A DNA stretch of 64,000 bases from Emiliania huxleyi CCMP1516 (GCF_000372725.1 NW_005202427.1:1152459-1216458), one strand, 5' to 3'. Positions 13,959 through 64,000 are shown, counted from the first letter of the stretch. Numbers and translations are program-made. Notes: generated from the letters alone by a model not told the origin.

Positions 13959-14288
13959 AGCCTGACGGCGCGATCTGGTCGTTTTGTACATCGTATGTAA
14001 ATGGTGAGTGCCACCTGCCACTGAGCACACGTTGTATTGTGTAAAGAGATAGTTCAGAAACGAGATATAGAGTTCTGAGTTGTAGCAACAGCCGGCAGGG
14101 GCGGTCACTTGGAGCACTTGGAGAGTGCAGTCGGCAACCACCAACCTCACATCCAGGGCCGGGGAGCTTGAGGAGCGCACCCAGCGAGCCGGATGATCGG
14201 CATCGGGCTACGGGCAGGAAAGCCCTGACCCCTAGGGGGGGGTGCGCGTTCGCAGGGCAAGGGCCTTAAAGTAAACATGGGTCTCCGA

Positions 14289-20941: not shown

Positions 20942-22291
20942 ATGCTGCGCGCGAACGACTTTTGGGACAAGGAGAAGGGCGCGCCGCTTCTGCGACGCAA
21001 CGCGGAGTTCCTCCCCAAGGGCGAGCCGCTCCCCGCCGAGCTGGCCGACCGCGTCGCCGCGTGGCCCGGCCTCTGCGGTGCTGACGCCGAGGCCCGCCCT
21101 CGCCTCCCGCGGGCCGAGCGGGCCAACGCCAGAGCGAAGCGTGCGCTGAGCGCGCGCGGCCCGTCGGCGGCAGGTGGACCCGCCGCTCGAGCCGAGCGCC
21201 CCGGACGAGGCGGCGGACCGCATCTTCCTCCGCGATGCCGAGCGGACCTTTGCCGACGAGGGCCACCGGCAGCGCATGATCGGGCTGCTCGGCCGCGTCT
21301 GGCCGTTGACCAAGGACTACCACCAGGGCCTCGGCTACATCGCCTCGCTGCTGCTGCTGCTCTTCGACGAAGAGACCGCCTTCCGCATGCTGCTCCGCAT
21401 CGGCCGCGACGACAAGTACTCCCCCGGCTACTGGCACGCGGCGCCCGACGCGTACGTGCGGGACGCGATGGTCTACGCGCGGCTGGCGGAGGAGCGGGAG
21501 CCGGAGGTCGCCGCGCTGCTGCAGCAGGCGTGCCTCGTCCCCGAGGCGTACGCCTCCAAGTGGCTCATCGGGCTCTGCGTGCACGTCCTCCCCTTCCGAG
21601 CGCTGTTCGACTACGTCGAGGCGTCCCTCGAGCTCGGGCGCGCCCTTCTCGAGCCTTCTCGGAGCCTGCTCCGAGCCTTCTCGGAGCCTCCCTTAGGCGT
21701 TCCTCGAGCACGGGCACGCCTTCTTTTTCCGCTTTTCCCTGGGGGTCTTCGGCCGCAACAAAGAGAAGCTCCTCGCCTTCAAGCCGACGGACGTCAACCT
21801 CATCCTGGAGGTGCCCTTTCAACCCCGGGGGCCCGGAGCCCCTAACCCTCAACCCCCCCCCCCCCCCGTGACAAACCCCCCTCCTCCCTCCCTGCCCCCT
21901 CCTCCCTCCCTGCCCCCTCCTCCCTCCCTGCCCCCTCCTCCCTCCCTGCCTCCTCCTCCCTCCCGCCCGGCGTCCGACCGCGGCCACCTCCCGGGCGTCC
22001 CTCCCCCTCCCCCCCTCCCCCCCCTCCCCCTACCTCCCCTCCGGCCGCCAGGTGCTGCGCCTCGACCAGTGCCAGTACGGCGACGAGCTCGAGGCGGAGA
22101 GCGGCTGGTTCTCGTCGCTGGTCGCGGAGGCGAAGGAGGTCGACCTCGAGGCGGAGCAGCTGCAGGCGCTGCGGGCGGAGGAGGCGGAGAGGCTCGCCGA
22201 GAAGCAGCGCCGCATCCGGGAGCGCGAGGCGCAGATGGCGGCGGAGGAGAGCGACGACGAGATCGTCTTTAGCGACGAGGAGGACGACTGA
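20942..22291 (+). CDS. TBC-domain Rab GTPase-activating protein, multi-exon
   Basis: IFLRDAERTF (Arg finger), YHQGLGYIASLLL (Gln finger), YASKWLIGL, acidic C-terminus. Confidence 0.88.
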
Positions 22292-27876: not shown

Positions 27877-30429
27877 TCAAAAGTAGAACGCGAGGTCGTC
27901 GTCGTCCGCCTGCTTGTCGCCGCCGAGGTTGTCGCCGTCCTCCTCCGACGCAGCTTGCTCGTTGAGGCGCCTCGCTCCCTCGAGCCAGTCGTTGACTATG
28001 GAGGCAACCATCTCGGGACCGCTGCCGCCCGCGCCTTGGCCGCCGCCGCCGCCGCCGCCCTCGCCGCCCGCGCCAAAGGAATGGCCCGCGCCGTCGACGA
28101 GCCTCAACCCGTGCCTCCCTCCGGCCAAGTGTTGCCTGTGGTACATGCGCGCCCGCAGCACCGCCACGTGTTCGTCTGCCTGCAGGACATGTCCCGGACA
28201 CGTCATGGGCGTGTCGTGGACACTGCCCGCAGCGCCGGCTGCTGCGCCTGCAGGAAGCGCATCACGATGTGTAGCTCCTCGGCACCCGCCTCGAGCGAGT
28301 CGCCGCCGAAGGCGCTGTAGCCGGCGTCTCCCGCGTCGTCCTCCCCTTCGCCGCTGCCTGCGGCGGCGGCGAGGCGGCGGACCGAAGCTGGCACGAACGC
28401 GAGCGAGAGGAAGTGCAGCCTCGCCTGCAGATCGTGTGCGAGGGCGCGCGAGCTCGCCGACGGGCCATGCAGCAGCACGAGCATCCCTGCCTTGCGGAAG
28501 GCCTCGTCGGCGAAGGTGTACGAACCGCACAGCCGGCCGACCGTCTCCATCTCGCCTCGAGGCCCGGACGGCAGCCTCATCTCCGAGACGGGCGCCTGTT
28601 CACAGCCGGAGGTGTGAAGAGGCGCCGTTCTCAGCCTCATCTCCGAGACGGGGGCGGCGCCTCGCTCTTGCGCGCGCGCCGTGGCGGCACGCGCCGCGCC
28701 GCGCCGCCCCGCATAGGCGCCCCACCCGCCCTCGGCTGCAGCAGCAGCGTCGCTCCGGCGGCGAGTCCGGCCGCCCGCAGCGTGGCTGCCTCGTCCTCGA
28801 GCTCGCGCGGCGGCAGCGAGGAGCGGTCCACGAGGGCGTACTTGCCGATGAGCTCGTCGACGTCGAGCTTGAGGACCGCCGCGAGCCAGCCGAGCACCTG
28901 TCCGCAGCCGGAGGTGTGACGAGGCGCCGTTCACAGCTTGAGGACCGCCGCGAGCCAGCCGAGCACCTGTCCGCAGCCGGAGGTGTGACGAGGCGCCGTT
29001 CACAGCTTGAGGACCGCCGCGAGCCAGCCGAGCACCTGTCCGCAGCCGGAGGTGTGACGAGGCGCCGTTCACAGCTTGAGGACCGCCGCGAGCCAAGCCG
29101 AGCACCGCCCAGACGGGCGGTCTCCCGCCCTGCCACGCCGCCTGCACGACGCCTCCCGCGGGCAGACGGACAGAGAAACGCTCCCGCCGGGCAGACGCGT
29201 CGCTGCTCGGGGGCAAGCTGTGCAGCGCCGACCAACCGCCAGCCGCATCGGCGCCGCCCTCGTCTGCCGCAACCTCGCTGCCGCCGCCGCCAAGCCCTCT
29301 AGCTGCACCGCCTCCCGGCGGCGGCACGGACGGAGCTGGCGCGGCCTTCTCGGGCGGTGCGGCCTCGGGCGGTGCAAACGGCCTGCGCGCCTGCCTGTGC
29401 GCGCGGTCTGCGCGAGCCTCGGCGAGCAGCAGCGCCTTCTCCGCCTCGCGCTGCCGCCGCTCGGTCGCGAGTGCGCGGGTGCGCTCGCTGCGGCCCGCCG
29501 CCGCCGCCGCCTCGTCCGCCTCTGGCGACGCGGTACTCTTCTTTGCCGCTGCACGCCTGCGGGGGGGACGGAACGGCGGTGGGGAGGCGAGAGGCGCGCC
29601 GCAAGCCTTGGGGGGGGGGGGGGGGGGCGAAGCCCCCCGGCCCGGCGTGGCCCGCTTTCCCCGCATGGGGTTTTGCCGCCGCCGCCGCCTTGGCCGCCGC
29701 CGCCTTGTTTCCAGGCGGCGGCGGCCNNNNNNNNNNNNNNNNNNNNNNNNNNNNNNNNNNNNNNNNNNNNNNNNNNNNNNNNNNNNNNNNNNNNNNNNNN
29801 NNNNNNNNNNNNNNNNNNNNNNNNNNGGCGGCCTCTGCCTCGGCCGCAGCCTCGCCGGCCCGCCGCGCCTCCTCGGCGCGCGCGGCTGCAGCCAGCCTGC
29901 GCCCCGCCTCGGCCGCCGCCGCGAGCCGACCCGGCGGCGGCTCGCGCAGGTCGGGCGGAGGCCCATCGGCGGCGGCCGCGGCGGAGGCTGCGTGGGAAGC
30001 CTCGGACTGCAGCTGCTCGAGCGCGCGCGCCGCAGCCTCTGCGGGCGGCAGGCCGCTGCTCAGGAGCTCCGCGAAGCGCGAGCGCAGCCGCTCCTCTGCG
30101 GTGGCGGCGGCGTCCGGCGCCAGCGGCGGAGGCTGCGGCGGTGCCGGCGCCGCAGCGGCCGGCTCCACGGGTGGTGGCGGGTCCAGTGTGATCGGAGAGG
30201 GAGGAGGATCAGGCGGCGATGGCGCTGCCGAATGTGGAGGCCGCGCCAGACCTTCCTGCAGTCGAAGTGCCTCCGCCGGCGTGAAGCCCAGCTCAGCGAG
30301 GGAGTCAACGAGGAGATCGGCTCGCATCGAGGCGAGGAGGCTGAAGGTGAGCTCCTCCTCCTCGAGAAGTGAGCGGTGGTGGTCGAGCTGCAGCTCCGAG
30401 AGGAGGCGGGCTAGTAAGCTGTCGCTCAT
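27877..30429 (-). CDS. Multi-exon protein with N-terminal SAM-like domain and UBX/ubiquitin-like domain
   Basis: LLSELQLDHHRSLLEEEELTFSLL...LAELGF...EALRL (SAM-like), coiled coil, RFSVRLPAGGVVQA and ATLRAAGLAAGATLLL (UBX-like). Spans an N-gap. Confidence 0.6.
28866..29095 (-). repeat. 69-bp tandem repeat x3+ (exon-start copy + filler + CAG)
   Basis: AGCTTGAGGACC units start at 28866, 28935, 29004 and 29073. Confidence 0.95.
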
Positions 30430-32103: not shown

Positions 32104-33715
32104 TTATTGCGGCGCTGCGTGTGTGCGGGCGCCTCGGGCGCGACAGAGCGGCGAGGTGTCGGCGCGGTCGGTGGGGCCCGAGGCGGCGCTCGTTGCGCTC
32201 CCCAGCGGCCACGGCGGCCGGAGGCACGGGTGCTGCGTGCGGAAGCGAATAAGGACCGGCGTGAGAGCGTCCCGCGTCGCCGCCTCGAAGCCGGGCAGGA
32301 GGGGTCGGCGGCTGGCGCGCTCGCGGACGCTCTTCGACTTGCGAGGGTGGAAGGTGAGGGAGCCGTCTGGTCCGGGGTAGCCGCTCGCGCGCCAGTCGTG
32401 GCGCTGCAGGCCCGCGTGCGCGAGGACCCGGTTGAGGAGGGAGGAGGGGCCGGAGGCGAACTCCTATAGCAATCGCTTCATTAATTAATCGCTCGTTGGA
32501 GGAGGGAGGAGGGGGCCGGAGCGCGGAGGAGGCGAGCTCCTCGGTGAAGCCGACGAGGAGGGCGTCGGGCGGGAAGGCGGCGAGCCAGGCGGAGATGACC
32601 GCGGAGTAGTCGAGAACGAGGGGGATGGAGCCTAAGGTAAGGTAAGGTAAGGTAAACTTCTCCACACACACGAGGGGGATGGAGCCTGTGCGGAGAGAGA
32701 CGCAACACGGGCCGAGGTGCGGGGGCGGGGGGGTGCAGGCGAGAGGTGGCGGGGCGTGAGAGAGGCGGAGTCAGTGCGGGGCCACAAGACTCAGTCTGCG
32801 AGTCAGAGAGCCTCCACATCCCAGCCACACCTATCTCAGGGCAGGGTGCGCGCGCGCGTGTTGCGCCTGGGGCCATCCTCAGGGCGTACAGCGCCTCGGC
32901 GTCCCTCGCCACCGCGACTGGCCGCAGCGGCGAGCCGCCCGCCGCACCGCCCGGCTCGAGCCGCAGCAAGCCGGCCCCCGCGGTCAGCATCGACTCGTAG
33001 TCGCGCTCGACGGCGCCGCCGCAGCTCGGCAGCGGCGGCCTGCGCTGGCGGCCGGCCTGGCGGAGGCAGTGCACGAAGCGCGATCGGACGAGGGCGACCG
33101 GATCGCGGAGCAGGAGGACGAGCCGCACCTATGGGGAATATGGGGAGATATGGATATGGGGGAGATGTGAGGCAGCCGGCGGTGCGTCATGATGGAGAGC
33201 ACGCTCGGCATCAGCCGGCGCATGAGGAAGGGCACGTGCCGCTCGATGCCGTTCGCGACGCGGCTCAGGTTGTGCTGTGGCCGCGCGTAGCCGGGCGACT
33301 TTTCAAAGGTGAGGACCCGGCCGATGTGCTCGCGCGGCACGGGGAAGCGGGCGGCGTACTCGCTCCACGACGTGCGCAAGGCGGCCTCGAGGAGCGAGCG
33401 GTGGTGGACCGGGCCGACGACCCCGCCCGGCATCGCGCGAAAGATGCCGTGGTTGAAGTACTGGACTTCGCGGTCGGTGGAGGAGGAGAGGTTGGGGTGC
33501 AGGCTCAGCCAGCCGCGCAGCTCGTCGGTGCCCGCCTTGGCCATCCCAACGCAGACCAGCGACGGCAGGCAGGAGACGGCGGGGACGGTGGCAGGAGACG
33601 GCGTGCTCCCGCCGCTCGGGAGCGTGATGCAGGTGCCCGAGTCAACGGCGCCGGCGTCGTACGCGCTGGTGGCGTCAGAGGGAGAGAGCAGAGGACCGTG
33701 CGTGAACTTGGCCAT
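32104..33715 (-). CDS. PAPS-dependent sulfotransferase (heparan-sulfate-sulfotransferase-like fold), multi-exon
   Basis: 5'-PSB VGMAKAGTDEL..WLSLHP, EVQYFN, FEKSPGY, 3'-PB LVLLLRDP, FTEEF..GP..LLNRVLAHAGL. Start uncertain. Confidence 0.8.
32634..32669 (-). mobile_element. Truncated (TTACC)n-tailed retroposon flanked by an 18-bp duplication
   Basis: ACGAGGGGGATGGAGCCT at 32616-32633 and 32670-32687. Confidence 0.85.
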
Positions 33716-40023: not shown

Positions 40024-40105
40024 TGTCGAGGACGGGGTTCGAACCCGCGCCCATTTCTGGAACGGCGCCTAAAGCCGCCGCCTTAGACCACTCGGCCACC
40101 TCGAC
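40024..40105 (-). tRNA. trnL-UAG: tRNA-Leu, anticodon UAG
   Basis: GTCGAGG acceptor stem pairs with CCTCGAC+A; D-loop TGGCCGAGTGGTCTAAGG; anticodon loop TT-TAG-GC; long variable arm; GGTTCGAACCC; T4 run downstream. Confidence 0.96.
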
Positions 40106-40217
40106 TTTCGGGTTCGAACCCGGGCCCAACCTCACCCCGAACGGGTGAGTGCTCATGCAGGGCTTGTTGCAAAACGTACGCGATCGGACCAATTGCTTAT
40201 AAAGCTCTGGAAAAACG

Positions 40218-40572: not shown

Positions 40573-43500
40573 ATGGGGCCCCCCTTTCACGATGGTGGCG
40601 CAGACTCTGGCCACGTCACCAGCATCAAGGAAGGGTTTGGCTTCATCCGACCCCTCAACGACCGGCGGACGGGCGGCGGAGGTCTCTTCTTCCACTTCAG
40701 CGCTCTCGTCGGCCGTGACGTCCCAGTCGAGGGCGACGAGGTCTCCTTCTCGGTCGAGCTCGACCGCCGCTCAGGGCGCGAGGCAGCCAAGGCGGTGACC
40801 ATCTTGCCGCGCGGGACGCTGCCTGCGCCCGCGAGGGCCGTCACCGTCCGCGCCGTCGTGCAGAGAGAGTTGCGCGGCGCTCGTGGCGGTGACGGCTACG
40901 GCGGCCGTCTCGCCGTCCTCAAGGGCGACGGGCCTCCCGCCGAGGGTGACGCCGCTGCTGGGGATGGCGGCCAGGACGATGACGAGCAGACAGAGGTGGT
41001 GTCCTTTGACGCCCGCGGCTGCGAGAGGCCCAGCGCTCTCCACGTCGGCGATCTGGTCGAGTGCCGCTTGATGAGCGTGGCGGGCTCGCGCCAGCGCGCG
41101 GCGTCGCGCGTGAAGCTCATCGAGGCAGGCGGCGGGCTGCCGCGCCAGAGCGGGCGGGTGGCCTCGCTCAAGGACAAGTTCGGCTTCCTCCGCACGGCCG
41201 GCAAGGCTGCCGACCTCTTCTTCCACCTGTCCGAGGCGCCGCGCGACACTTCTCTAGACACTTCCTAGACACTTCCTAGACACTTCTTCCACCTGTCCGA
41301 GGCGCCGCGCGAGGGCGGCCCGCGCCGCGTGGGGGGCGACACTTCCTAGACACTTCGCGGACACTTCCCTGTAGGCGCCGCGCGAGGGCGGCCCGCTCCG
41401 CGTGGGGGACGACGTGTCCTTCTGCGTCGTGCTCGACCCGCGCTCGCGCAAGGACGCGGCGACGAAGCTGCGCCGGCTGCCCGCCGGCTCCGTCGCGCTC
41501 GAGCAGCTCGGAGAGGCTCGGCTGCGCGGCGTGGTGACGCGCTGCCTCGCCGGCAGCGCGAGCCTGCACCGGCTGCTCTCGCGCGCGGAGAAGGGGGCGC
41601 ACGGGGGGATGATCCGGCTCGAGGGCGGGGCGGCCGGGCGCGGGGAGGGCGCGGCCGAGGAGGCTGCGGCCGAGGATGCTGCGGCCGAGGAGGGCGCCGC
41701 CGAGGGAGGGGCGGGGAAGCTCAGCTTTGGGCTGGACGACGTCTGCGGCGAGTCGCGCGCGGCGGGCCTGTACGAGGGTGACGAGGTGAGCTTCAGAGAG
41801 GCGACCGACGCCGCCACGGGCGCGGTGGGCGCTGCCGACGTGCGGCTCGAGGCGCAGAAGGTGAACCGCGGCTTCGTGCTCTCGCTGCGCGACGGGCACG
41901 GCCTGCTGCGCGGCGAGGCGGGCGGCGCCCCGCTGAGCTTCGCCGCGTCGTCGCTGCCTGGGGTGAGGCCGCGCGACGAGGTGTGGAGCACTAGTACCGG
42001 CGGTAGGAGGCACCCTGAATTAATTGAGTACTTATTCATGAATGACTGCGCGACGAGGTGGAGTACCGGCGGGCGAGCGACGCAAAGACGGGCAGGCCGG
42101 CGGCCGCACAGCTCCGGAGGCTGCCTGCAGGCTCCCTCCTCCCAGCCAATGAATTAATTACTACCCGCACAGCTCAGCTCCGGCGGCTGCCTGCAGGCTC
42201 CCTCGTCCTCGAGTGGGTCTCTCCGCGCTGGTGGGAGGCCGTCGTCCGGCTCGCGCCCGCGGCGCCGCGCGGGCGCGGAGGCGGCGCCAGAGACGGCGCG
42301 GCGCAGAGCTGCGGCGCCGGCTCGGTCGAGCTCCTCGGGCCGCTGCCGCTTGCCGCTAGCGCTGCCGCCGCACCGCTTGCGCGTGCCGCCGGCGGGTCGC
42401 ACGAGCCCGCGCAGCGGTCCGAGTCGGACAAGCCCATCAACAATTAACTAATTGATTGATTAATTTAGGTCCGACTCGGACAAGCCCATCCCCCTCGAGC
42501 TCGGCCAGGCGCTCGCCCCGCCGCTCTCGCCACGCGCCGGCGAGGAAGTCGGCGCGGGCCTGGCGACCCCTTCGGCCGAGGCGCGCGCGGCGCTCGAGCG
42601 AGTCGATAGCGTGGCTGGCATGGCGGGCACCGTCCTGCCGCTGCCTCAAGCCGACGCAAAGTCGCGCGAGCAGCTGGTGCCGGGCGACATCGTCTCGCTG
42701 CTGCTGGCGGTCAGCGCGCGCGACGGCTCCGTGCGGCCCACGCGGGCGACGTACGAGCGGTGCGCGGACGGCGCGGTGGAGCGCGGCGTCGTCGTCAACG
42801 TGAAGGAGCAGTTTGGCTTCCTCAAGGCGGAGGCGCGCGCCTCGCCCGTCTTCTTCCACTTCTCGCAGCTGCCCGACGGGGTGCACCGGCTGGCAGCTGG
42901 TGCAGAGTTCGAGTTCGTCGTGACCGCCGAGGACGCGGCCGGCCGGAGGAAGGGCCGCAGCGTGGCCATCCGGCTGCGTTCGCTCGCTCCGGGCACCGTC
43001 GCCTTTGAGGATTGTCTCCTCGAGGAGGCGAAGGGGACTGTCGTCGCGGGGGCCGAGGCGGGGGGCGAGGCGGGGGGCGAGGCGGGGGCCGGGGCGGGGG
43101 GCGAGGCGGGGGCCGAGGCGGGGGCCGAGGCGGGGGCCGAGGCGGGGGGCGAGGCGGGGGGCGAGGCCGACTGCAGCCGCGAGACGATCGGCGACGACGC
43201 AGACGGAGAGGACGCCGCGAAGATCTCGGTGCTGCTGCTCGATAAGTTCGAGGGCGAGCGACTCAGGCTTCCGATCGACCGTCGGCGGCAGGAGCAGGCG
43301 CTGCGTGGCGCCGTGCCCGCTCTCGGCACGACCGTCACGTCGCGGCTCTGCCGCCGCCGGCGTGACGGCGCGCTCGTCCTGGTCGACTCGACACCGGTGC
43401 CGATCCGCGGCGTGGTCAAGGCCGTCTCAGGGGGCCAGGGCAGCATCCGCGCTACGGACGCGCTGCCCCAAGCTGCCGTCGATGCTGCCGCCGCCGCACG

Positions 43501-51049: not shown

Positions 51050-51355
51050 GCCGGAGTCTCGGTGAGAGTCTTTGCCTCGGCTCCGACCATGGTCGTGGCT
51101 CGTGAGCTGCTTGCTGTCTTGTGAATCGTGTCGTGCGACCGCGTTTTGTTCGAAGTGTGCGAGAAATTTCTTTATTCCTCTTTCTCAGCCTCCGCGTACT
51201 CAACCCAGGGTACAGCGAGCTCCAGCCATTGCAGCCGCTACCACAGGTGTGTGAACCGAACCCCAAGGCAGCGAGCAGCCCTCCGCAAGACCGAGCCCCC
51301 GCGAGGTTGACAGCGGAGTAGGCTGGGGCTATACCAGACAGCGGCGAGCTCGGGC

Positions 51356-54300
51356 ATGTTCGCTTGTTTATCTCTCTCTCTCTCGGCTCATGCATTTTCT
51401 GGAGGCCCCCGCCAGCTGCAAAGCTGGCTGTTCGGCTGGCCAGAGAGCGACAGCAGCAGCAACGCGACCAGCAGCAACGCGTGGGATGGGTCACTCATAG
51501 ACGTCGACACACCGCTGGAAGAGCTCGAGACGGTCGGCCTTGGCGATGGCGAGAGCTACCGGCTGGTCATGTCGGACGAGTTTGAGACCGAGGGCCGCCG
51601 CTTCAGCGAGGTCTCGAGCGTCTGAGCGCCCTCGCTTCCACCAGCTCGTCCCGTCAGCTGTCTCGCTCGCCGTCTCAGGTGGACCGCGACCCGATCTGGA
51701 CGGCCGTCGCAAGGCACGACCCGACGAACGGCAACCTGGCATACATGACGCCGCAGATGGTGAGCACTCACGCGGGCGCGCTCGAGATCTACACCACAAA
51801 CACGGGCTTCCGCGCCTCGCGGTACGCCTCCGGCTCCGTGCAGTCGTGGGAGAAGGCTTGCTTGCAGGGCGGCATCGTCGACGTCTCCTTCTCCCTGCCC
51901 GGCGAGCCGGGCGCGCCTGGCGTCTGGCGCGCACCCCTCCGCCGCCCTCCACCGCCTGGCACTCTGCTCCTGCCGCCAGCTCACCGGAGGCGCTGCCACG
52001 CCACGCACCGCCATCTCGATGCTCACTCACTCTGCTTCTGTCTACGCCACGCCAGGCCCGCCATCTTGTCACAGGCCCGCCATCTGGATGCTCGGCAACC
52101 TCGGGCGGGCCACCTACCCGCTCTCGAACGATGGCCTCTGGCCCTTCTCCTTCGGCGCGTGCGACCGGTCTCTCGGAGGCCAGGCGGCACGCTAGGGCTC
52201 GGCGCCATAGCCTCGGCGCCCTCCTGGAACCTTCCTGGAACCTTCCCATCAGCTCGGCACCCTCCACCACAACAGACACACGAGCCGACTCGCCACAGCA
52301 CACACCGCTACCCCGTGCCCGCCACTGCCCGCCACTGCTCGCCTCTGCCCCCCCGCGGGACTCTCCTCCCCCGCGGGACGGTGCTGTCGGCCTGCTCGGA
52401 CCGTAACACAGGAGCCTTCTAGGAGCCTTCTAGGAACGTTCTAGGTGCTGTCGGCCTGCTCGGACCAGCCAGCGCGCGGCTCGGGGCTGCGGCCGTACCA
52501 GGGGCGAGGCGTGCCGGAGGTGGAGCTGCTCGAGGACATGTCGCAGGACATGTCCGCGATATGTCCGAGACATGTCACATAGGCGTGCCGGAGGTGGACT
52601 TGCTCGAGGCGCGCCCGTGCGCCGACATCGCCGCCGCCAGCGACAGGCCCGCGCTCGCGGTGGCGCACAACAACCTCACGTGCGGCATCACAACCTTCCA
52701 GGCGCAGCCTCGGGCATCGCAGCCAGAGCCCCGCAGCAGCAGCCAGAAGAGCCCCGCGCCACGCCGCCGCCCAGGCGCCGCCGCCCCCCCGGGTCTCACG
52801 CCCAACCTCTGTGGCGACAGGTTGCGCCACGCCTGCCGGGCCGGCTCCGTCCGAACCACGGCTCCTTCCCGTCGGCGCGCCGGCCTTGGTACCCCAACCT
52901 GACTTTCGGCCGCCGCTCCGAGATCGACGCCCTCTGGTACGGAGGGGACCACTTCGACTCGCTCGGCGCCTACTTCCCGCTCTCTCCCTCCTACCACACC
53001 CCGCCCCGCGCACCGCACTCCGGCGCCGGAGCCTACTCCGGCGCGGCCGCGGCGGCGGAGGCGGCCGGAAGCTACGGCGGCTTCGGCAGCTCGCTCTTCG
53101 ACGCGAGCGCCGCTCTCTCCCCCCGCCGCCTCGGCGTCTCTCGAGACGTCACCCGGCGTGCCGGCGGGCGTAGGCGGGCTTCTTCGGCGCGCCGCCCGCC
53201 GACGCCCTCCCGAGGACCGACCGCGGCCTTTCGCACTTTCGGTTCGAGTACGAGCCGGGCGCGGACGGCTTCATGCGATGGTTCCTCGACGGCGCGCGCA
53301 GCCCAGCACGAGCCCGCCCACGCCCACGCGTCCTAGAAGTTTCCCAGAAGGTTCCCAGAAGGTTCCCAGAAGGTTCCTAGACGGTTCCTGGACGGTTCCT
53401 GGACGGTTCCTGGACGGTTCCTAGAAGGTTAGAAGGCACGAGCCCGGCCACGCAGTCCCGCACTCCCCAGCCACGCACACTCCCGACCCGGCCCCGCCCG
53501 CCGCCGCCCTCGTCGCACGCGCGCCCTCGCCGCCCCGTGCCGCCGCCCAAGCCGCCCTCTCCCCTGCCCGCAGGATCGCTCGTCTTCGAGGCGACCGGCG
53601 AGTCGCTCCGCCCGCGCCGCGTCCCCGGCGGCGGGCACGTCGGCCAGCGGCTCGTGCCGGAGGAGCCGATGCCCCCCATCGTCTCTCATCGTCTCTCATC
53701 GTCTCTCATCGTCTCTCATCGCCTCTCCGCTGTACCCCGTCACAGGAGCCTATGTACCTCATCATCTCGGCCGCCGTCTCGCGCGTCTTCTCGGGCAGGA
53801 TCGACCAGGCCATCTTCCCGACAGTCTTCCGCATCGGCCACGTCCGCTTCTACCAGCGCGCCAGCGGGCGGCAGCGCACCTCGTGCTCGCCCCCCGACCA
53901 CCCGACGGCGGGCTGGATCGCGCAGCACTGGTGGGCAAACGGCAAGCAGGCGCCCCCCTCGGTCGACAACCTGCTCCGCGCCTCCGTCCTTCTCTCGGGC
54001 TGCGTCGCCGCACTCGGCGCCCTCGCGCTGCTGCTGAGTGAGGAGCACGTCCGCCTCGCGCTCGCACTGCTGTTCGGCGCCTTCTTCTGCGCCGCGCTCG
54101 CCTCCGCCGGCCTCGCCCGCTACCTCGGCGTCTCTCCCGACGACGCGTGGCTCGGGCCGCAAACCGCGGGCGGCGACAGCGCCACCAGCTCGCTCACGCT
54201 GTCGGCCGGCGTGCCGCTGCGCAGCCACGTCTGGAGCTTGTCTGGAACCATCTAGGACCCTTCTTGGAGCTTTCTAGGCGTGTCGCTGCGCAGCCACGTC

Positions 54301-57300
54301 TGGAACTTGTCGGCGGAGCGGGCTCGGGCGGCGTCGCTCGCGCGGTGCGGCTCGCCGAGAGGGAGCCGAGACATGCCCGACGCGTAGCCGAGAGGGGTCC
54401 GAGAGGGGTCCGAGAGGGGTCCGAGAGGGGTCCGAGAGGGGTCCGAGAGGGGTCCGAGAGGGGTCCGAGAGGGGTCCGAGAGGGGTCCGAGAGGGGTCCG
54501 AGAGGGGTCCGAGAGGGGTCCGAGAGGGGTCCGAGAGGGGTCCGAGAGGGGTCCGAGAGGGGTCCGAGAGGGGTCCGAGAGGGGTCCGAGAGGGGTCCGA
54601 GAGGGGTCCGAGAGGGGTCCGAGAGGGGTCCGAGAGGGGTCCGAGAGGGGTCCGAGAGGGGTCCGAGAGGGGTCCGAGAGGGGTCCGAGAGGGGTCCGAG
54701 AGGGGTCCGAGAGGGGTCCGAGAGGGGTCCGAGAGGGGTCCGAGAGGGGTCCGAGAGGGGTCTTGTCGCGCGACTCTCCGATCGGGTGGGGCGGCGACGG
54801 TTCCGCGGCGCGAGGCAGGAGGTGCCTAGAAGGTGCCTAGAAGGTGCATAGAAGGTTCCGCGGCGCGAGGCAGGAGGTGCCTAGAAGGTGCCTAGAAGGT
54901 GCCTAGAAGGTGCCTAGAAGGTTCCACGGCGCGAGGCAGCCTGGCCGTGGCCGCAGGCTCTTTGCCGATCGCCTCGTCTACCTCGCTTGCGTCGTCGAGG
55001 CGGCGGTGGTGGGCGGCTTGCTGCTGACCATCCTCTCGGAGCTCACTCTCTGCCTGGCGACCGCCTTCTCCGTCTCGCTCCTCGCGCTGCAGGCGAGCCG
55101 CACGCACCGCACCGCCTCGCACCGCACCGCACCGGACCGCACCGCCTCGCACCACCTCGCACCACCTCGCACCGCACTGCCTCGCACCGCACTGCCTCGC
55201 ACCGCCTCGCACCGCACCGCCTTGACTCTGGCCGCCTTGACTCTGGCTCCGTCGGGCAGCAGGCGAGAGCGCTGCCCCGCCTGCTCTAGGAACCTTCTAG
55301 GAACCTTCTAGGAACCTTCTAGGCGAGAGCGCTGCCCCGCCTGCTCGTGGCTCTCTTGGGCGCGCTTGCCGCCAGGGAGGGCGGGCAGGACGAGGGCGGC
55401 GGTCGGGTCGGCTCTCTGTCCGCCGCCGTTCCGCTGCCGCCGGTCGGGCCGCCGCTTCCGCATCCGCGCGGCTGGTCGGCGGGCGAAGAGCTCTCCCTGC
55501 TCCTCTTCCCCCTCTTCCTCTTTGTCGCGCTCGTCTCGGGCTTGGCTGCCATTCACGTCCGCAAGGCGTTCCTCGAGGCCGCGACGGCGTTGTGCGGCGC
55601 GCAGCTGCTTTGGCTCGGCGCCGCAAGCTTGGCGGGCGGCGAGGCGATGCTGGACGTGCGGCACTAGGAACCTTCTAGGAACCTTCTAGGAACCTTCCGA
55701 GAGGGGTCTAGGCGATGCTCGACGTGCGGCACGCCGTCGAAGGGCTCGCGGGGTCCGGCGTGCAGGGCGACCTCGGCAGGAGCTCCTCGCCGTGGGCTGC
55801 GCCGGTGGTGGTCGCCCTTACCAGCGTCGCCTTGCTGCGCCACGCCCGCTGCCTGCGCCGGGGCAGCTGGACCCGCTCCCCTTCTAAGTCAACTGTTAAT
55901 TAACTGTTAATTAATGTTGAATTACTACTAGGCAGCTGGACCCGCTCTGCCGCGGCCTCGGTGTGCGTGTGCTGCAGGCCAAGGTCCGAGGCGGGGCTGT
56001 GGTCTCTGGTGTGGCGGGCGAGCGGTCAGCTCTGGCAGGAGCTGGCGGATGACGTCGACGACGAGGAGGACCCCGCCGCCAGCCCGTCTGCAGCGGAGGC
56101 GCGTCGCGGTCGACGTCTGCCAGGCGCAGCCGTCGGTCGAGCGCTGGTGGCTAGCCACCGCCCGCCGGCACGGGCAGAGGCGGCCACGAAGGGCAGCCTG
56201 TCCGGTGGCGGCCACCTCCTCGCGCCGGCTCCTCGCAGCCAGCCGCCAGCGGGGGAGGCGCGCCGCTCCCCGCTCGTCTCCGCCGCAAGCTCGGCTGGCC
56301 TCCGCCGGGTCGTCTCCGCCGAAGCCTTCACCGCCCGGCCGGCCCCTTGGTGGGGGGACCCTACGGCCCCTTGGTGGGGGGACCCTACGGCCCCTTGGTG
56401 GGGGGACGGCTCGCCGCCGGAGGAGAGGCGGTGGCTGCCGCCGCTGCAGCAGTGCACCGCGGTGGATGCGAGCGGGGCGCTCGGCAGTCCCGTGGTGAAG
56501 CAGCTCTGCGCCGTCGCCGCCGCGTTTGAGGCCGACTTCGGCTTCCAGCGCCCGGTGGTGTGCAACCAGCTCGAGCACTTGCTCCGGCTGCTCGCCGCGA
56601 GAGCGGCGCGCTTACCCTTCTCCGCCCCCGAGCGTGCGGCGCGCGCCGCCGACTCGCTCCATGCGCACCTCTTTGCGTCGTACTTCACCTGGTGCGAGCA
56701 CGTGCGCGCCGAGCCGCGCTGCTCTCCCGCAGCAGCGCGGGCGAGGCACGGGCCGGGCGCTGCGGGCGGGGCGGCCGAGGCGGGCGGCGAGGAGGCGGGC
56801 GAGGGCGGGCTCGCCGAGGCGGAGGCTCGCCGGGCAGAGTGCCTGCTCTACTTGCTCGTTTGGGCCGAGGCGGCAAACTTGCGCCACGCATCAGAGGCCG
56901 TCTGGTGGCTCTTCCACCAGCTCTCCGACTTGGCGAAACCGCTGCCGCGCCCCTTCGCGCTGGCGAGCGTGGCGCCGCTCTACGCGTCGCTCGTCCACCT
57001 CTTCTGCGAGCGAGCGCACCCACTCAACTACGACGACGTCAACGAGGCCTTCTGGCGACCCGACTGCCTCGGGTGGAGCCTCGAGGGGAGCGGCGCCGGC
57101 AGTGCCGCCGCGCAGCTCCGCGGGCTGGCAAAGGAGTACCGCGAGCGCCGCTCCTGGCTTCACATGCTCGGTGCGTTCGAGCACGTCTACTTTGCGCACT
57201 GGATCATGCTGCGGCTGATGCTCGGCGCGACGCTCGGCCTCAACACCTGCATCGCCGCCGAGTTCGGCGTGCCCTGCGAGGCGGGCGAGGAGTCGGACGC

Positions 57301-60300
57301 CGTGCTGGCACCAGGAACCTTCTAGGAACCTTCTTGGAACCTTCTAGGCGGGCGAGGAGTCGGACGCCGCGCTGCGCGTGTTGCAGTTCGAGGCGACCCT
57401 CGTGGTGGACGTGCAGGCGTACCGCGTCCTCTCGGGCTTGCTGCAGCTGTGGGCGCGCTTCCCCACCTGCGACCCGCCTGCCAAGCTCGACGCGGTGCTG
57501 CGCGTCGCGCTCGACCTGCTCCTCTCTCTCGCGCTCAACGTGGCGCTCTGGTTCTCGCTCCGCGACCAGCACCTGCACCACTGGGCGATGGCGCTGCTGC
57601 TCTCGATCGCCGTCTTCGTGCGGCCGACCCTGTCCAGCCTGCGCTTCCTCGTGGTGCGGCCGGGCGGCGGCGGCGGCGGCGGCGGAAGCAGTGGTCAGCC
57701 CAGTCTGGGGCGCGAGCGGCTGCTCTCGCTGTTTGGCATCGAGGTGAATGCACTGCGATTGCACTGCTCTCGCTGTTTGACATCGTTAATTCCCTGCGAA
57801 TTGCCTGCGAATTGCCTGCTAACTCTAACTGCTCGCTGTTTGGCATCGAGGTTGCCAACGGGCCGCTCCCCGCGAGGCACGTCCGGCCGACGAGCTGGTG
57901 AAGCACTCAATCAATGGACTGATGAGTGGCTGCTACTAACCATAGGCACGTCCGGCCGACGAGCTGGAGCGCGCTCGCTTTCTGGCTGACGCTGTTCAGC
58001 GTGCACTGCCTGCTGGTGCAGCACTACATCGCGGACGCGCTCGTCGTCGACACGCTCGGCCTGCTCTACTCCTACTTTGGGCGAGCACCTAGAAGGTTCC
58101 AAGAAGGTTCCTAGAAGGTTCCTAGGCCTGCTCTACTCGTACTTTGGGCGCTCGCTCACCGGCAGCTCCGGCATCGGCCTCGGCCAGCTGTTTGTGCTGC
58201 TCCTCTGCATCTGGGTGCCGGTCATCCTCTTCTTCCACCGGGAGGAACCTTCTAGGAACCTTCTTGGAACCTTCTAGGTGCCGGTCATCCTCTTCTTCCT
58301 CGTGAGCTTCTCGCTCACCTTCACACTCTGGGTGCTCGTCGTCGGGCTCTGTCGCGGGCTCGGCTCCCTCCGCATCGCACCCGAGCTCGGCCTGCCGCAG
58401 CTGCTCGCCGCCGACCGTGGACAGAACCTTCTAGGACCCTTCTTGGAACCTGCTAGGCCTGCCGCAGCTGCTCGCCGCCCACTTTGACCCGGCGGCCGAC
58501 CGCTTCGAGCAACGCTGGCTCGCCAGCCGTCCGGCCCGGCTGCCCCCCAGCCCGGTCCCTGCCCAGCGAGGGTTGCGGGCGAGCCCGTCCTTTGCACCGA
58601 CTGCGCGCGGGGAGGGTGGCCGTGGCTCGCCAAATGTGATTGCCGAGGAGGCTGACGAGGCGGAGGAGACGATGATGGCGGCGGCGGCGGAGGAGGAGGC
58701 GGAGAAAGAGCTTGCGGAGGAGGAGGCGGAGGAAGAGGCTGCGGAGGAGCAGTTGCTGGGCGAGCTCGCCAAGGGGGGGGCGTGGGCCGTGTCGGCGGGG
58801 GGGCGCTCGGTCTCGCTCCCAGCAGTCGCCAATGGGTCGCGAGACGGCGCCCTTCCGCCAGACGAGGACGCGCCCGCGGACTTGTCGGGGCTACGGCCGG
58901 CCGCCCAGTCCGGGCGCCCCTCCCGTGGTGGGACATCTCCTCACGGCCCGGCTCCTGTGAGGCGTAGGCTGCTCGGTCGGCTGCCTGCGCGGGGCGGCTG
59001 GGGCTTTGCGCAGTGTTGGAACACGATGCTCCACGAGATGCGGCGGCAGGATTTGGTCGACAACTCCGAGGAGACCCGGCTGCAGTTTGCGATCGTGCCG
59101 CGCGCCGTCCACCCGCCGCCGCCCGCTGCGGTCAGCGCCGCCGCCAGGGCGTGGCAAGAGCGGCCGCCGGTGCCGGGCAGTCTGCCGCCCCTGCCGCGCG
59201 CCGAGGCTGCGCCCGACGGCACGGCATTGCCGCTGCTTCTCCCGCCGCCGCTCGGGTCTCTCAAGCGCGCGCTCAGTGCGCTCCTCGCGGGCTGCCCCGT
59301 CGAGTCGCTCCCGACGCTCTGCCGCCTCTCGCTGGCGGGTGCGGCCGACATCGCGATGGCAGTTGTCTGGCCGCTGCTCGGCGCCGCGCACCAGCCCGAC
59401 GTGGCGCTCGCCCTCCGAGCCCTCGCCGCTGTCGTGCCCCCGATCGCGCCAGCCACCGATGCGTCTGCCGCCGGCTCGGCCGGCCAGTCCCGCCCTTGCG
59501 GCGCGCTGCCGCCCGGCCTCCGCTCGGAGCGGGTGCTCTACGGGCTGCGCAAGGCGCTACAGCGGTGCGAGGCCTCCTCCCTCCACGAGCCGCCTCGGAG
59601 CCTCTCGGGACCTGTCTGTAGGCGCTCGTCGAGCGAATTCGTTCCTGCGAATGAGCACTGATAGACCACTCATAGAACTGTCTCAGGCGCTCGTCGAGCT
59701 GTGCGAGGCCATCTTCGCCATGATCGTCGCCTTTGATGGCCGCGCCGCCCGAGGCGTCGCTAACCCTAACCCTAACCCTAACCCTAACCCTAACCCTAAC
59801 CCTAACCCTAACCCTAACCCTGACCCTAACCCTAACCCTGACCCATACCCTAACCCTAACCCTAACCCTAACGCCGCCCGAGGCGTCGCGGCGCCTAACG
59901 GCTGATTAACTGTACTCAACTACTACTAACCACTCAGTAACTGTCTCGAGGCGACGCGGCGCCTAACGGCCGTCTCGCCAAGCGGTCGGCGAGCGTAGCG
60001 TGCCTGGCGTCGGCCGCATCGCACCCGCACGACAACGGGCTCGCCGCTAGACCGGCGGGCGGCGCCGGCGGGCTAGAGGGCAGCAACGCCGCGCAGGCGC
60101 CAACGGACGGCCCGCTCGAGTCGGGACAGAACGGTGGGGGTGGACTGCGAACGACGGAGCGGCCGCAGATGGGCGACGGCGGCGGCGGCGGCGGCGCCTC
60201 GGCCGGCTCGGGCGTCGGCTTGCGGCACGCGCTGCGCTCGCGCTCCTTTGGCGATTCGCTCTCGAGCTTGTCGCGCGTCGTCTCGCTCAAGGGGCTCTCG

Positions 60301-63300
60301 CGCGACCTCTCGCGGCTCGACCTCACCGCCAGCCTCAACGACCTCACCGCAGCCCTCTCGCTCGCGCGCCGCCGCAGAGGCGTGACGCGCGTGCGCATCG
60401 CAGACATCGCCTCGGCCGAGGGCGCCGCCGTGCGCTCTGCGGCGCTGCCAGCGATCCAGCAGGCGCTCGCCTCTAAAAGACTACTAATAAGCTAATAATC
60501 AGCTACTAACAAAGTACGATCCAGCAGGCGCTCGCCTCGCTGCTGGCGTGCCTCCAGCACGCCTGCCTCGCAGCGGCGGCCGCGCGCCCCAGCCGTTCCG
60601 CCGCGCAGGACGAGGTGCGCGGCGCGCTCGGCGCCGCCGCCAACGCGCTGCAGGCCACCCTCGCCCACCCGACCCTTGGCTTTTGGGCGGACAGCAGCTA
60701 CGCGAGTGCGTCGCTCGCCAGCCTGCTCCGGCACGAGCCCAACCTTGAGGCGATCGCGGTCCGGCTGCGGCGCATGCTTTCGCTGTCGCCGACGCCGAGG
60801 CCGCTCCGCTCCAACGAGGCGATGCGCCGGCTGCGCCACTGGCTGCGCTCGCTCAAGATGGATGCACCGGAGGCGCCTCCGGTGGCGGAGATGCAGTCGT
60901 GGTCCATCCTGACGCCCGTCTACAAGGAGACAGTCCTCTACTCGATGGCGGATTTGGAGGAGGAGTCGAACGACGGCCGCTCCTTCATCGAGGTGTGCTG
61001 CGCGGAGTCACTTACTAGCCCATTCCTAGCTAGCATGCAGGCTCATTCGTAGCTCACTGGCCGCTCCCTCCTCGAGGTGCTGCGCGGCCTTCACCGCGAC
61101 GAGTGGGCAAACTTCGCGCAGCGGCTCGGCGAGTCGCCCTCCGCGCTCAGCGTCGCGCGCTGCGCCTCGGAGCCGAGGCTGGCCCTCCAGCTGCGGCTGT
61201 GGGGCCTCTAGGAACCTTCTCGGAACCTTCTTGGAACCTTCCTTAGGCTGGCCCTTCAGCTGCGGCTGTGGGCCTCGATGCGAGGCCAGACTCTCGCGCG
61301 CACCGTCTACGGCATGATGCACTACGAGTCGGCCTTGGCCTTCCTCGAACCTTCTCGGAACCTGCTCGGAGCCTTCCTTAGGCATGATGTACTACGAGTC
61401 GGCCTTGGCCTTCCTCGTGGCCGTGGAGGCGGGTTCAGCGGGAGGCGGCCCCGCCCCCCCTCTGCCCGCCGCCTCGCAGACCGCCGCCGCCAGTGCCTTG
61501 GCGCAGCGCAAGGTGGGCTACGTGTGCGCGTGCCAGGTCTATGGCGACTACAAGCGGGCGGGCGACCCGCGAGCGGTCGATATCGAGGCGCTTATGCACG
61601 CCTTCCCTTCGCTGCGGGTCGCCTACGTCGAGCGCAGGGGCGGCGGCGGCGAGGGAGGGGGGGAGGAGGAGGAGGAGGCGTGGGCGGCGATGCTGGTGTG
61701 CTCCGATGGGGAGGGGGGCGTGAGGTGCGAGAGCCGCGTCGGCCTCCCCGGCAACCCGATCCTCGGCGAGGGCAAGCCCGAGAACCAGAACGTGGCGCTG
61801 CCGTTTTGCCACGGCGAGAGGGTGCAGATGGTGGACATGAACCAAGAGGGGTACTGGGAGGAGGCGCTCAAGATGCGGCCGCTGCTGCAGGAGTTCGAGT
61901 CGTCCGCCAAAGCCGGGCCGGTGACCGTCATCGGCTTCCCGGAGCACATCTTCACGCAGTCGTCCGGCTTCGTCACCGCCATCTTCATCGGGCTGCAGGA
62001 GCGCTACTTCGGCTCCTTCGTGCAGCGTGTGCTCGACGAGCCGCTGGACGTTCGGCTGCACTACGGCCACCCCGCCCTGCTCGACAAGCTGCACTTCTTC
62101 TGGGAACCGTCTTGGAACCTTCTTGGCACATTCTAGGCCACCCCGACCTGCTCGACAAGCTGCACTTCGCCACGCGCGGCGGGGTGAGCAAGGCGTCCAA
62201 GGAGATCAACTTGAGCGAGGACATCTTTAGCGGGTACAAGACGGTGCTCGCCGGCGGCTGCGTCGTCTTTCGCGAGTACCACCTCGTGGGCAAGGGGCGG
62301 CCCACAAACCTGATGGAGATCACCGGCTTCTTCGCGAAGCTCTCCTCCGGCTCCGCCGCGTCGCTCACGACGCGCGACGTGGCGCGCTTCGCCGCCAGCG
62401 CGCCGCTCGTGAAGCTCTTCTCGTACTACTACTCGGCCATCGCCTTTTACGTGCACGACGTGATCGTGATGCACGTGACGGTGCCTCGCCCCGCGCCTGT
62501 CCCTCGCCCCGTGCCCGCGCGCGCGAGGGATGGATGGCGAGCACCGCACTCCTCATTGCGGATGGCCGAGCAGGTCCTCATCCCCTACCTGCTCGCGATG
62601 CTCGCGCTCGTCGGCCTCGATCACCGCTTCAACAACTACGAGGCGCAGCCCCTCTCGCTCTTCGCCCTGCTCCCGCTGCTGCTCTCGCTCATGACGGCCC
62701 TCCCGCTCTTGCGTGTCTGTAACGACTGCCCATCCTCTTCATCACGTGCTTCCCCGTCGTAGGCCGTGCCCGCGCTCTGCATGGTGCTGGTTGAGAGAGG
62801 GCCTCGCCGGGCCCTCTCCTTCTTGCTTGGGATGGCCATCACCGCCTCGCCCGTCTACTTCATCTTTGTCGCGCAGACAAAGTCCTTCCACTTTGCGCGC
62901 ACCGTCACGGCGGGCGGCAGTTCATTAGCAGCTAATTCGTAGCTTATTTAGTAGCTGATTCGTAGCTTCGTAGTAGCTTATTAGTAGCTTATCAATCACC
63001 ACAGGCGGGCGGCGCGTCCTACTTCGCCGCGCGGCGGAACGCCTCAGTGCTTCACACGCCCTACCACGAGCTGCACGCGCGCTTTGCGCACTCGCACCTC
63101 TACGTCGCCGCCGACGTGTACGTCTTTCTCTGCATGGCGCACGTCTGGTCCGTCTCGGACCGGCTCTTCCTCACGACGTGGCCCACTTGGGCGGTGGCTT
63201 CGTGCTTCGTCCTCGCGCCGCTGCTGTACAACCCGCAGCAGCTCGAGGCGTGGCAGGTCAAGGCGGACGTGCGCGGCTTCTGCGGCTGGGTGACGGGCGG

Positions 63301-64000
63301 AGGCTGGGAGGAGTGGTACGCGCGGCTGCACGGGCCGCCCGCGCGCGGGGGCATGGCCGCCGAGGACGCGGCGTGGAACGAGCAGTTCGGACGCGTCTCT
63401 GTCGCGGCGTTTTACTCGTTCATCGCCTACCTCATCCCGCTCCAGACCAATGTCGACAACTTCGCCGCCACGCGGGGGTGGGTGTGCGAGCCGCGCCTCG
63501 TCTGCACGGGCGCAACCTACCTCGCCTCGCTCGTCGCCCTCGCCGCCGCCGACTTGCGCCCCCACCGCTCGGCGCGCGCGCCGTCGAGCCGCCGCCGCCG
63601 CGCCTGCTACGTCGCGGCCGCCACCCTCTGTGCGGCCGCCACCCTGCAGCTCGCGGCGGCGTGCGCCGTTTTGGGGCCGGCGAGCAGCGCCGCTGGAAAG
63701 GCCCTCTGCGCGCCCGACTGCCGTTTGCGGAGGCGCCTCGCTGGCCTGTAGGCCGGCCTCGCTCGCACCGCCTCGCTGCGCAAGCGGCTGTGCGTCGCCG
63801 CCCTGTGCGTCTACGCTTGCGCAGGCGCTGTCGGGTCGGTGCTGGAGACGTCCGCCAATGCGCCCTCTCTGTCTGAACCTCTTTTGAACCCTTCTCCGAG
63901 CCTTGGATAGGTGCTCGAGCTCGCTGCCAACATGCGGGCGACGGCGGACGTCGCCGCGCCGCTGCTGAGGCTCGCCCACAAGGCGCGCGAGAGCGTGGAG
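51356..64000 (+). CDS. Fused KRE6/SKN1-like GH16 transglycosylase + GT48 1,3-beta-glucan (FKS/callose) synthase; many introns; probably runs off the window
   Basis: GH16: LIDVDTP, LVMSDEF, YASGSVQSW, PAIWMLGNLGRATY, GRGVPEVDLLEA, PEEPMYL. GT48: FGFQ..V.NQLEHL, LYLLVWAEAANLR, NYDDVNEAFW, LTPVYKETVLYS, WASMRGQTLARTV.GMMYY, LPGNPILGEGKPENQN, DMNQ..Y.EEALKMR, RLHYGHPD, TRGGVSKASK.INLSEDIF.GY, VGKGR. Confidence 0.9.
54388..54762 (+). repeat. Perfect intronic 11-bp repeat (CCGAGAGGGGT)n
   Basis: About 34 identical units. Confidence 0.97.
59760..59872 (+). repeat. Interstitial telomere-type repeat (CCCTAA)n inside an intron
   Basis: About 18 units with a few CCCTGA/CCCATA variants. Confidence 0.95.

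Follow-up and report, generated by a model that had tools for sequence, protein, structure and literature searches.

Introns of Emiliania huxleyi that begin with a copy of the next exon, and their possible birth in staggered breaks repaired with short repeats

Within a window of 64,000 nucleotides (nt) of the haptophyte Emiliania huxleyi CCMP1516 (GCF_000372725.1 NW_005202427.1:1152459-1216458, one strand, 5' to 3'), the whole of which is meant wherever we speak of the window, a 1,3-beta-glucan synthase gene is interrupted by a real, RNA-supported and lineage-specific class of introns that carry a long duplication as a birth mark. A unit of this kind has its donor at G|GC or G|GT, where a copy of the beginning of the following exon, here called the echo, sets in; a filler follows, and after a closing AG the same exon sequence is read again. 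With some reserve, we consider that these introns were probably created when a staggered break in the exon was mended by inserting a short piece of repeat DNA. The best match of the gene is EMIHUDRAFT_449354 of E. huxleyi CCMP1516, and Pfam recognizes its Glucan_synthase and FKS1_dom1 domains.

A preliminary description of the window, made from the sequence alone, had listed 21 intervals of this anatomy, and all 21 display the G|GC or G|GT, the copy of the next exon start, the filler and the final AG exactly where it had placed them. Three entries need refinement: 41236-41374 consists of two stacked units (66+73 nt), the 22-nt duplication of 60463-60527 is divided 11+11 across the junction, and the echo of 28596-28660 on the minus strand contains a short indel. 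Missing from the list were the units at 5361, 21621, 32632 (minus strand), 42136 (minus strand), 59622, 59883 and 62910, as well as two mirror-image units in which the 3' end copies the upstream exon (57744-57850 and 60993-61076). The 64-kilobase (kb) window contains 41 aperiodic direct repeats with a spacing of 45-95 nt, and in 27 an AG|GY lies close to the left end on one of the strands; order-5 Markov simulations (n=20) gave 0-3 direct repeats each and a single splice-configured repeat overall. A stricter repeat scan returned 24 matches in the window; low-GC homologous loci totalling 495 kb gave 2, and the homologous loci L001 (8.3 kb) and L060 (13.2 kb) gave none. Echo units are far more frequent than chance.

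Transcripts establish that the units are spliceosomal introns and are removed from RNA. Eight of 20 sequencing runs were compared, all as contigs, over 55230-59740 and 59880-64000, while runs X17-X20, with next to no matching words, were left out. RNA contigs skip at least 19 segments, each of which can be placed between GT or GC and AG. Among the joints listed, 10 of the 12 previously described units in the compared stretches are represented, six of these 10 in two studies; none is listed for 55263, at the edge of a stretch, or for 60463, which fell between contigs. In all six informative cases (55644, 57281, 58059, 61178, 61312 and 62066) the RNA matches the second copy from the first mismatch onwards, so that the cut lies at the start of the first copy. 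This excludes the alternative of placing the donor where the first copy ends, and it disposes of the concern that transcripts might keep that copy. With 21 introns removed, 55323-64000 is stop-free over 2314 amino acids; the unspliced frames of the first part contain 13-22 stops. Removal at GY...AG with restoration of the frame, at 19 joints, places the introns in the U2-type GC-AG/GT-AG class; a branch-site-like YTRAY motif occurs in 5 of the 19, and the common 11-mer filler has no YTRAY. The telomeric array at 59754-59882 is 129 nt long and the frame therefore stays open whether it is spliced or not. A boundary of this array at 59752 was also considered and breaks the frame, while 59754 fits.

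Independent DNA carries the same units. No DNA or probable-DNA run shows the RNA joints, among the joints listed, and the units are intact in one contig from a marine DNA run, which covers 60874-64000. The metagenome contigs L021 and L022 also contain them, with differences of about 1% in introns and 0.3% in exons. Sequence variants of runs X2 and X7 make a copy and its exon identical again, as expected if both started out the same; at 60993-61076 the X7 allele matches the end of the upstream exon perfectly. At the site of 61312-61381, L021 has the unit doubled in tandem, its copies matching two alleles, which reflects either unequal crossing-over or an assembler join.

A metagenome scan yielded 79 glucan synthase loci, of which 36 were aligned. 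L001 (69% GC, 65-74% amino-acid identity), apparently genomic DNA to judge from its intron-like 5' end and a 3' flank of 1.2 kb, has no intron at any of the 18 alignable sites among 20 examined with a spliced aligner. This aligner recovers the 10 C-terminal introns of the window exactly; it also produces false introns in divergent regions, and only calls with conserved flanks were counted. Empty sites were likewise found in database proteins, whose models read through introns: in P0002 of the Isochrysis galbana cluster (five of six covered sites: 60463, 60993, 61178, 61312 and 62066), in P0003, a 17-kb contig (seven of eight), and in P0004 (all seven). The only intron that is shared is the echo-less one at 62481, where P0002 and P0003 read through the same codon; L001 is without it. 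Across the 36 aligned loci, no intron occupies the codon and phase of 61312 in the 30 that cover it or those of 62066 in the 32 that cover it, and two loci have an intron within five codons of 61312. A tree of 565 columns makes the window gene sister to (L001,(P0003,P0002)) with a support of 0.998; P0004, L070/71, L061 and a Pavlovales protein fall outside that clade, and the outgroups are empty. Since the positions are absent in sister and outgroup homologs, the alignments indicate that the echo introns are lineage-specific gains and not ancient introns shared by distant taxa, a possibility that had been raised beforehand. A comparison of paralogs within the window gave no alignment spanning an echo site. 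L070 and L071, which belong to another GC-rich lineage, have introns of 150-180 nt with a donor-exon match of 2-8 nt, including a GA donor.

The donors follow from this anatomy. The 19 introns with RNA support all follow an exon that ends in G, and the two bases of their donor are those with which the next exon begins; 14 donors are GC and five GT, which fits the exonic ratio of GGC to GGT of 347:86 (binomial p 0.56). The proposal that the excess of GC donors reflects whatever exon bases follow the G holds in this gene. GGA is as frequent in exons as GGT and yet none of the 19 introns has a GA donor, so selection on donors is also needed. The echo is strong or clear in about 11-13 of the 19: ten plus two introns have anchored echo scores, counted beyond the dinucleotide, of at least 14 (5' end) or at least 11 (3' end), two are intermediate with 6.5-7 (59554 and 62910), two have a decayed echo (p 0.015) and three keep only G|GY.

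For anatomy statistics, 31 units were curated by hand in a way that favoured units with filler. Their duplication is variable, about 10-41 nt in 30 units, and the remaining one, 28596, scores 7 nt because of the indel in its echo. It reaches at most 4 nt to the left of the junction in 26 of the 31 and extends 2-39 nt to the right. The 27 units of up to 80 nt have a mean length of 66.5 nt (standard deviation 5), and within them duplication length and filler length are anticorrelated (rho -0.64, p 4e-4). Mismatches between copies amount to 20 in 755 nt, a figure that is biased low by the copy-extension procedure. Fillers measure 29-86 nt in all 31 units, a property that curation favoured. The upstream exon of 10 units has only the G and no AG, which means that the A of the acceptor came from the filler.

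Fillers group into shared families, at least four of them unrelated within this one gene. Most are 5-11-mers or non-tandem, and the 2013 E. huxleyi genome paper of Read et al. is said to describe tandem repeats of 10-11 bp in introns. The filler of 58059 is the inverted (reverse complement) form of the 57281/58215 filler (match score 35), and neighbouring units near 28.6-28.9 kb have a non-tandem filler in common at 33 of 37 nt. Filler patterns had no match in viral contigs; in genome contigs none was found at first, and then 25 single prokaryotic matches at chance level. The unit of a 34-copy 11-mer array at 54388-54762 recurs at the end of the 55644 filler, possibly through a template switch. 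Longer compound units with flanking duplications, at 53306-53435 and 54796-54939, contain the 11-mer filler in reverse orientation. The reported haptophyte telomere repeat is TTAGGG (PMC3622300, 10.1101/2024.05.26.595999). Telomerase-made interstitial telomeric sequences would consist of that repeat, which in our material is the case only for 59754-59882, the sole such filler in the window, and for a second lineage.

This second, haptophyte-like lineage comprises contigs L043, L045, L050, L052, L054 and L072, which encode a paralogous glucan synthase and whose named relatives are Chrysochromulina and Prymnesium (72-77%). On five of the contigs, eight introns are predicted from sequence that combine telomeric filler with an echo of 9-21 nt. 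Pairs at 88-90% DNA identity present filled against empty sites, with a single copy at the empty site, and each of nine well-flanked sites is filled in one or two loci and empty in four to nine. Nine intron calls (seven sites) with a 5' echo have CCCTAA-only filler, three calls (two sites) without a 5' echo have TTAGGG followed by CCCTAA, head to head, with the donor from the side of the insert, and one call follows neither pattern. These layouts look as would be expected if one or both 3' ends of a staggered break had been extended by telomere repeats and then joined. L043 1213-1348 and L054 1249-1374 are the same echo intron with the same mismatch in homologs that are 80% identical overall, which suggests gene conversion or a chimeric contig.

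We propose the following course of events. Two offset nicks in an exon, 11-41 nt apart, would leave overhangs, and a broken 3' end would be extended by 30-60 nt of simple repeat; nearby introns or arrays may provide this repeat in E. huxleyi, and telomerase would be a likely source in the telomeric cases. Fill-in and joining would then duplicate the stretch between the nicks, leaving one copy on each side of the filler. RNA shows that the spliceosome cuts where the first copy starts, at its G|GC or G|GT, as well as behind the final AG of the filler, so that message and protein remain unchanged. Only inserts that offer G|GY...AG and a length near 65 nt would survive, and such a filter would itself tie the left end of the duplication to the junction and let the donors follow exon composition. 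Thereafter the echo would decay by point mutation and units would stack or be amplified by unequal crossing-over, stages that are partly represented in the catalogue. The duplication, the filler, the precise splicing and the absence in relatives are observations; the break step is what we infer from them. As in gains of the Daphnia type, the direct repeat of the exon end recurs at the far end of the insert and the empty site has a single copy, empty sites being seen at the DNA level in the telomeric lineage and at the level of protein or spliced alignment for the window. The preliminary description had suggested a duplication or staggered cut plus an AG-ending filler, and that much is supported; the nearest known parallel is the repair of staggered breaks with an insert, as in Daphnia, rather than the pure duplication of a proto-splice site.

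Several points weigh against this reading. Break, enzyme and template have all been deduced and none observed, and the data come from one gene in depth and one window. Published GC donors, at 56-65%, fall below the 80% expected from exon composition alone (PMC4028052). P0002, P0121 and P0004 may be transcript-derived, in which case their empty sites would be uninformative, and the lack of the 62481 intron in L001 implies that this locus lost at least one intron or that the site was gained twice. No intron-less allele was present among the joints listed for four DNA or probable-DNA runs or in L021 and L022, all contigs that drop rare variants, so that no birth has been caught in an E. huxleyi-like population. 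In the largest family, fillers that resemble one another tend to be close neighbours (Mantel rho -0.53, p 0.007, n=13), which counts in favour of the proposal, but the test is small and probably driven by the most distant fillers. The 10-11-mers of E. huxleyi are not the telomere repeat, and telomerase thus cannot be their direct source. Some 3' ends are shared out of register (61178, 61312 and 21621; 5704 and 41302), and together with the non-tandem filler of 28596/28898 they fit copying from an RNA or element end equally well. Finally, at two sites of the second lineage a pair of homologs both have an intron, the 5' parts being different (L045 2341-2406 / L050 1938-2066 and L050 256-391 / L052 485-550), a situation that fits either parallel gain or rewriting; in the former pair each 5' part echoes its own exon.

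Copying from an RNA end is what an Introner of retro type would do. An endonuclease/reverse transcriptase, non-LTR (lacking long terminal repeats) or Penelope-like, would nick at G|G and copy the 3' end of an excised intron or short repeat RNA into the target, which would yield a 5'-truncated filler, a fixed AG end and a long, variable duplication. Target-primed reverse transcription has a fixed left and a variable right end, and this geometry, with a 5'-truncated insert, is what the units display; it is also expected of staggered-break repair and does not discriminate. The filler 3' ends shared across genes and the non-tandem filler shared at 33 of 37 nt speak for such an element, as does the origin of about 5% of classified introners from non-LTR elements (PMC12130899). 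We nevertheless regard it as unlikely: the 58059 filler exactly inverts that of its neighbours, telomeric arrays placed head to head would be expected where ends had been healed and fused, not from a single RNA template, and at least four unrelated filler families coexist in one gene. No source element was identified, though no search of a genome aimed at one was made. Assembly artefacts or chance repeats can practically be dismissed, and for the RNA-supported units they are refuted. The doubled unit of L021 does illustrate, with two alleles in tandem, that assemblers can mis-join units; RNA removes the units precisely, independent DNA contigs from other samples carry them with variants of their own, the mismatches between copies are fixed and simulations give values near zero.

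The echo might also be a scar in an old intron, if a break in that intron had been repaired on spliced RNA or complementary DNA and the start of the next exon copied in. Such rewriting would explain why the copy starts exactly at the junction, why echoes are young (20 mismatches in 755 nt) though the sister lineage is distant, and why two telomeric-lineage sites have different 5' parts at the same position. It is nonetheless improbable to a high degree, given that the positions are empty in sister and outgroup homologs, that the one shared position (62481) has no significant echo, that filled and empty pairs at 88-90% identity differ by the whole unit and that filler separates the copies in mirror-image and two-sided units. 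We give hardly more credit, indeed a shade less, to a Rogers-type tandem duplication of about 65 nt of exon around AG|GY, followed by replacement of the 3' half of the intron by repeats. The near-constant total length beside a varying echo agrees with it, the units at 60463, 60993 and 57744 also mirror the upstream exon, and stacked or amplified units demonstrate that tandem duplication acts here. On the other hand, none of the 31 curated units is without filler (a count that was not blind, since curation favoured filler) and none is a whole duplicate of exon, 10 of the 31 upstream exons have a G and no AG, and near-perfect echoes stand beside wholly replaced 3' halves.

Staggered-break repair, if it is the origin, invites a broader and more tentative view. 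We speculate, and hold it to be possible rather than probable, that haptophytes possess a transposon-free, genome-scale intron factory in which staggered exon breaks are healed with telomere repeats (in Emiliania, with 10-11-mers copied from other introns); break repair and telomerase would then be the main source of their introns, which would explain both the GC-donor majority and interstitial telomeric tracts. It has long been asked where new introns come from, and the sources identified so far for mass gains are mostly transposons. In the present case every intron has a readable and datable birth mark, a copy of 11-41 nt, in a cultured alga with public genome and RNA data, and rate, age, site preference and template could be measured genome-wide from these marks. 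They also offer a mechanism by which GC donors could have become the majority in E. huxleyi and, in the second lineage, tie telomere-type healing to gene architecture. Annotation is affected as well: the public model of the gene (P0001) uses GT sites inside echoes (55656, 52520 and 54240) and gains a duplicated peptide at 55644, where RNA supports the GC donor and not the peptide. The public model also has a SKN1/KRE6 domain N-terminal to the glucan synthase, in the region 51253-52170.

The units and introns are collected in the table. Elsewhere in the window there is a local segmental duplication (11796-14288 / 14524-17141, 87-93% identity) and there are coding tandem repeats at 6800-7720, 22500-23255 and 49693-50587 with units of 153-156 nt and 99 nt, which we take to resemble the RCC1 and ankyrin types. 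Two motifs 75 nt apart at 40035-40130 are presumably tRNA-T-loop-like.

Table. Echo units, introns and their host gene in the window, with the evidence for each (RNA joint: the segment is skipped in RNA contigs; empty: no intron at the homologous site)
Position	Strand	Feature	Evidence and remarks
51253..64000	+	1,3-beta-glucan synthase (FKS1_dom1 + Glucan_synthase)	runs off window end
52381..52444	+	echo unit, GT donor, 23-nt duplication, 11-mer filler	sequence
52509..52582	+	echo unit, GC donor, 29-nt duplication	sequence
54209..54277	+	echo unit, GC donor, 35-nt duplication	sequence
55263..55322	+	echo unit, GC donor, 26-nt duplication	sequence; at edge of RNA-examined stretch
55644..55711	+	echo intron, GC-AG, 68 nt	RNA joint, 2 studies; second copy retained
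55863..55931	+	echo intron, GC-AG, AT-rich filler	RNA joint, 1 study
57281..57347	+	echo intron, GC-AG	RNA joint, 2 studies; second copy retained; L001 empty
57744..57850	+	mirror-image intron, GT-AG, 3' end = 19 nt of upstream exon	RNA joint, 2 studies; L001 empty
57877..57945	+	echo intron, GC-AG	RNA joint, 1 study; L001 empty
58059..58125	+	echo intron, filler = reverse complement of 57281/58215 filler	RNA joint; second copy retained; L001 empty
58215..58277	+	echo intron, GT-AG	RNA joint, 2 studies; L001 empty
58390..58456	+	echo intron, GC-AG	RNA joint, 2 studies; L001 empty
58896..58967	+	GC-AG intron, G|GC match only, no significant echo	RNA joint, 2 studies; L001 empty
59554..59686	+	stacked double (68+65 nt), inner unit 59622-59686, 133-nt single skip	RNA joint, 2 studies
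59754..59882	+	telomeric (CCCTAA)n array, 17-nt flanking duplication, stacked on 59883 unit	sequence; candidate intron
59883..59950	+	echo unit, GC-AG	sequence; open frame requires removal
60463..60527	+	two-sided unit, 11+11 nt duplication	sequence; empty in L001, P0002
60993..61076	+	mostly mirror-image intron, GT-AG	RNA joint, 2 studies; X7 variants; L001 empty
61178..61246	+	echo intron, GC-AG	RNA joint; second copy retained; empty in L001, P0002, P0003
61312..61381	+	echo intron, GC-AG, 37-nt duplication	RNA joint, 2 studies; second copy retained; empty in 30/30 covering loci
62066..62136	+	echo intron, GC-AG, within conserved YGHPD motif	RNA joint, 2 studies; second copy retained; empty in 32/32 covering loci
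62481..62573	+	GT-AG intron, no significant echo (p 0.24), older	RNA joint; position common to Isochrysis-cluster proteins
62697..62762	+	GC-AG intron, decayed echo (p 0.015)	RNA joint
62910..63004	+	GC-AG intron, 9-nt echo, AT-rich filler	RNA joint
63680..63751	+	GC-AG intron, G|GC match only	RNA joint
63839..63910	+	GT-AG intron, decayed echo (p 0.015)	RNA joint
4357..4423	+	echo unit in other gene, same 11-mer filler family	sequence
5704..5767	+	echo unit, second filler family	sequence
21621..21696	+	echo unit (absent from preliminary description)	sequence
26749..26816	+	echo unit, GT donor	sequence
28596..28660	-	echo unit, non-tandem filler matching 69-mer array 28866-29106 at 33/37 nt	sequence
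28866..29106	-	echo+filler unit, 3.5-fold tandem amplification, 69-mer	sequence
32632..32685	-	echo unit (absent from preliminary description)	sequence
41236..41374	+	two stacked echo units	sequence
42417..42468	+	echo unit, GT donor, AT-rich filler	sequence

New here are the length of the duplication, the repeat or telomere filler and the density of the units. We found no description of exon echoes in haptophyte introns in the literature within reach, which excluded most subscription papers and all supplements; PMC2784329 and PMC13685798 contain nothing that bears on the matter in the text available, and PMC3488318 is a background review. The donors of E. huxleyi have been given as 56-65% GC, with 4% GA in a curated set, and attributed to the GC content of the genome (PMC4028052); that study treats the GC-AG excess and intron retention of the same organism and, in the text available, makes no link to duplication or intron origin. 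In mammals, interstitial telomeric sequences are inserted at double-strand breaks, none of them in an exon or making an intron as far as the accessible text goes (PMC7215372), whereas the arrays described here interrupt coding sequence and look like introns. For Calcidiscus leptoporus, many introns and pervasive interstitial telomeric tracts are reported, and the text seen does not connect the two (PMC13518057). A tandem-duplication case in potato (PMC4974935) resembles our units in that the host exon supplies the donor and that an exon piece plus a copied intron 3' part give the same final anatomy, which fits the stacked units; such cases are isolated and need an exonic AG|GT or a neighbouring parent intron, whereas most of our units contain a foreign filler and lack an adjacent parent.

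In logic, Introners are the closest known system. They co-opt the 5' site from a target-site duplication while the insert carries the 3' site, and in dinoflagellates their excess of GC/GA donors is mirrored by the start of the next exon (PMC9860276, 10.1101/2020.10.14.339549, PMC12130899). As in Introners of any type, the donor comes from duplicated host bases, the AG from the insert, and the messenger RNA is unchanged. The earlier contrast, that unlike in Introners the 5' half is host-derived, was overstated: Introners also recruit their donor from the duplication, and the difference therefore lies in duplication length and filler type, not in host origin as such. Introner duplications are 3-9 bp long and fixed per family (4 bp in Chrysochromulina, PMC9860276), often with terminal inverted repeats and similarity over the full intron. 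Here the duplication has no fixed length of 3-9 bp but varies, some 40% of an intron is specific to its locus, simple or telomeric repeats make up the filler, and families share only 30-50 nt of filler, several being unrelated, rather than end-to-end similarity; no terminal inverted repeats were evident in the fillers by eye, no formal search having been made. Those Introner pipelines that require end-to-end similarity would likely miss such introns, and the searched text of the two Introner survey papers does not mention huxleyi or Emiliania. In mechanism, the closest known system is the neointrons of Daphnia pulex, gained by staggered double-strand-break repair with repeats of 4-12 bp (33 among 90 neointrons) and inserts mostly of unknown source (PMC4202315). 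Compared with these, the duplications described here are longer, at 11-41 nt, and provide the donor; their fillers come from repeat families that several units share, and the density is high, with a clear echo in 13 of the 19 introns of one gene.

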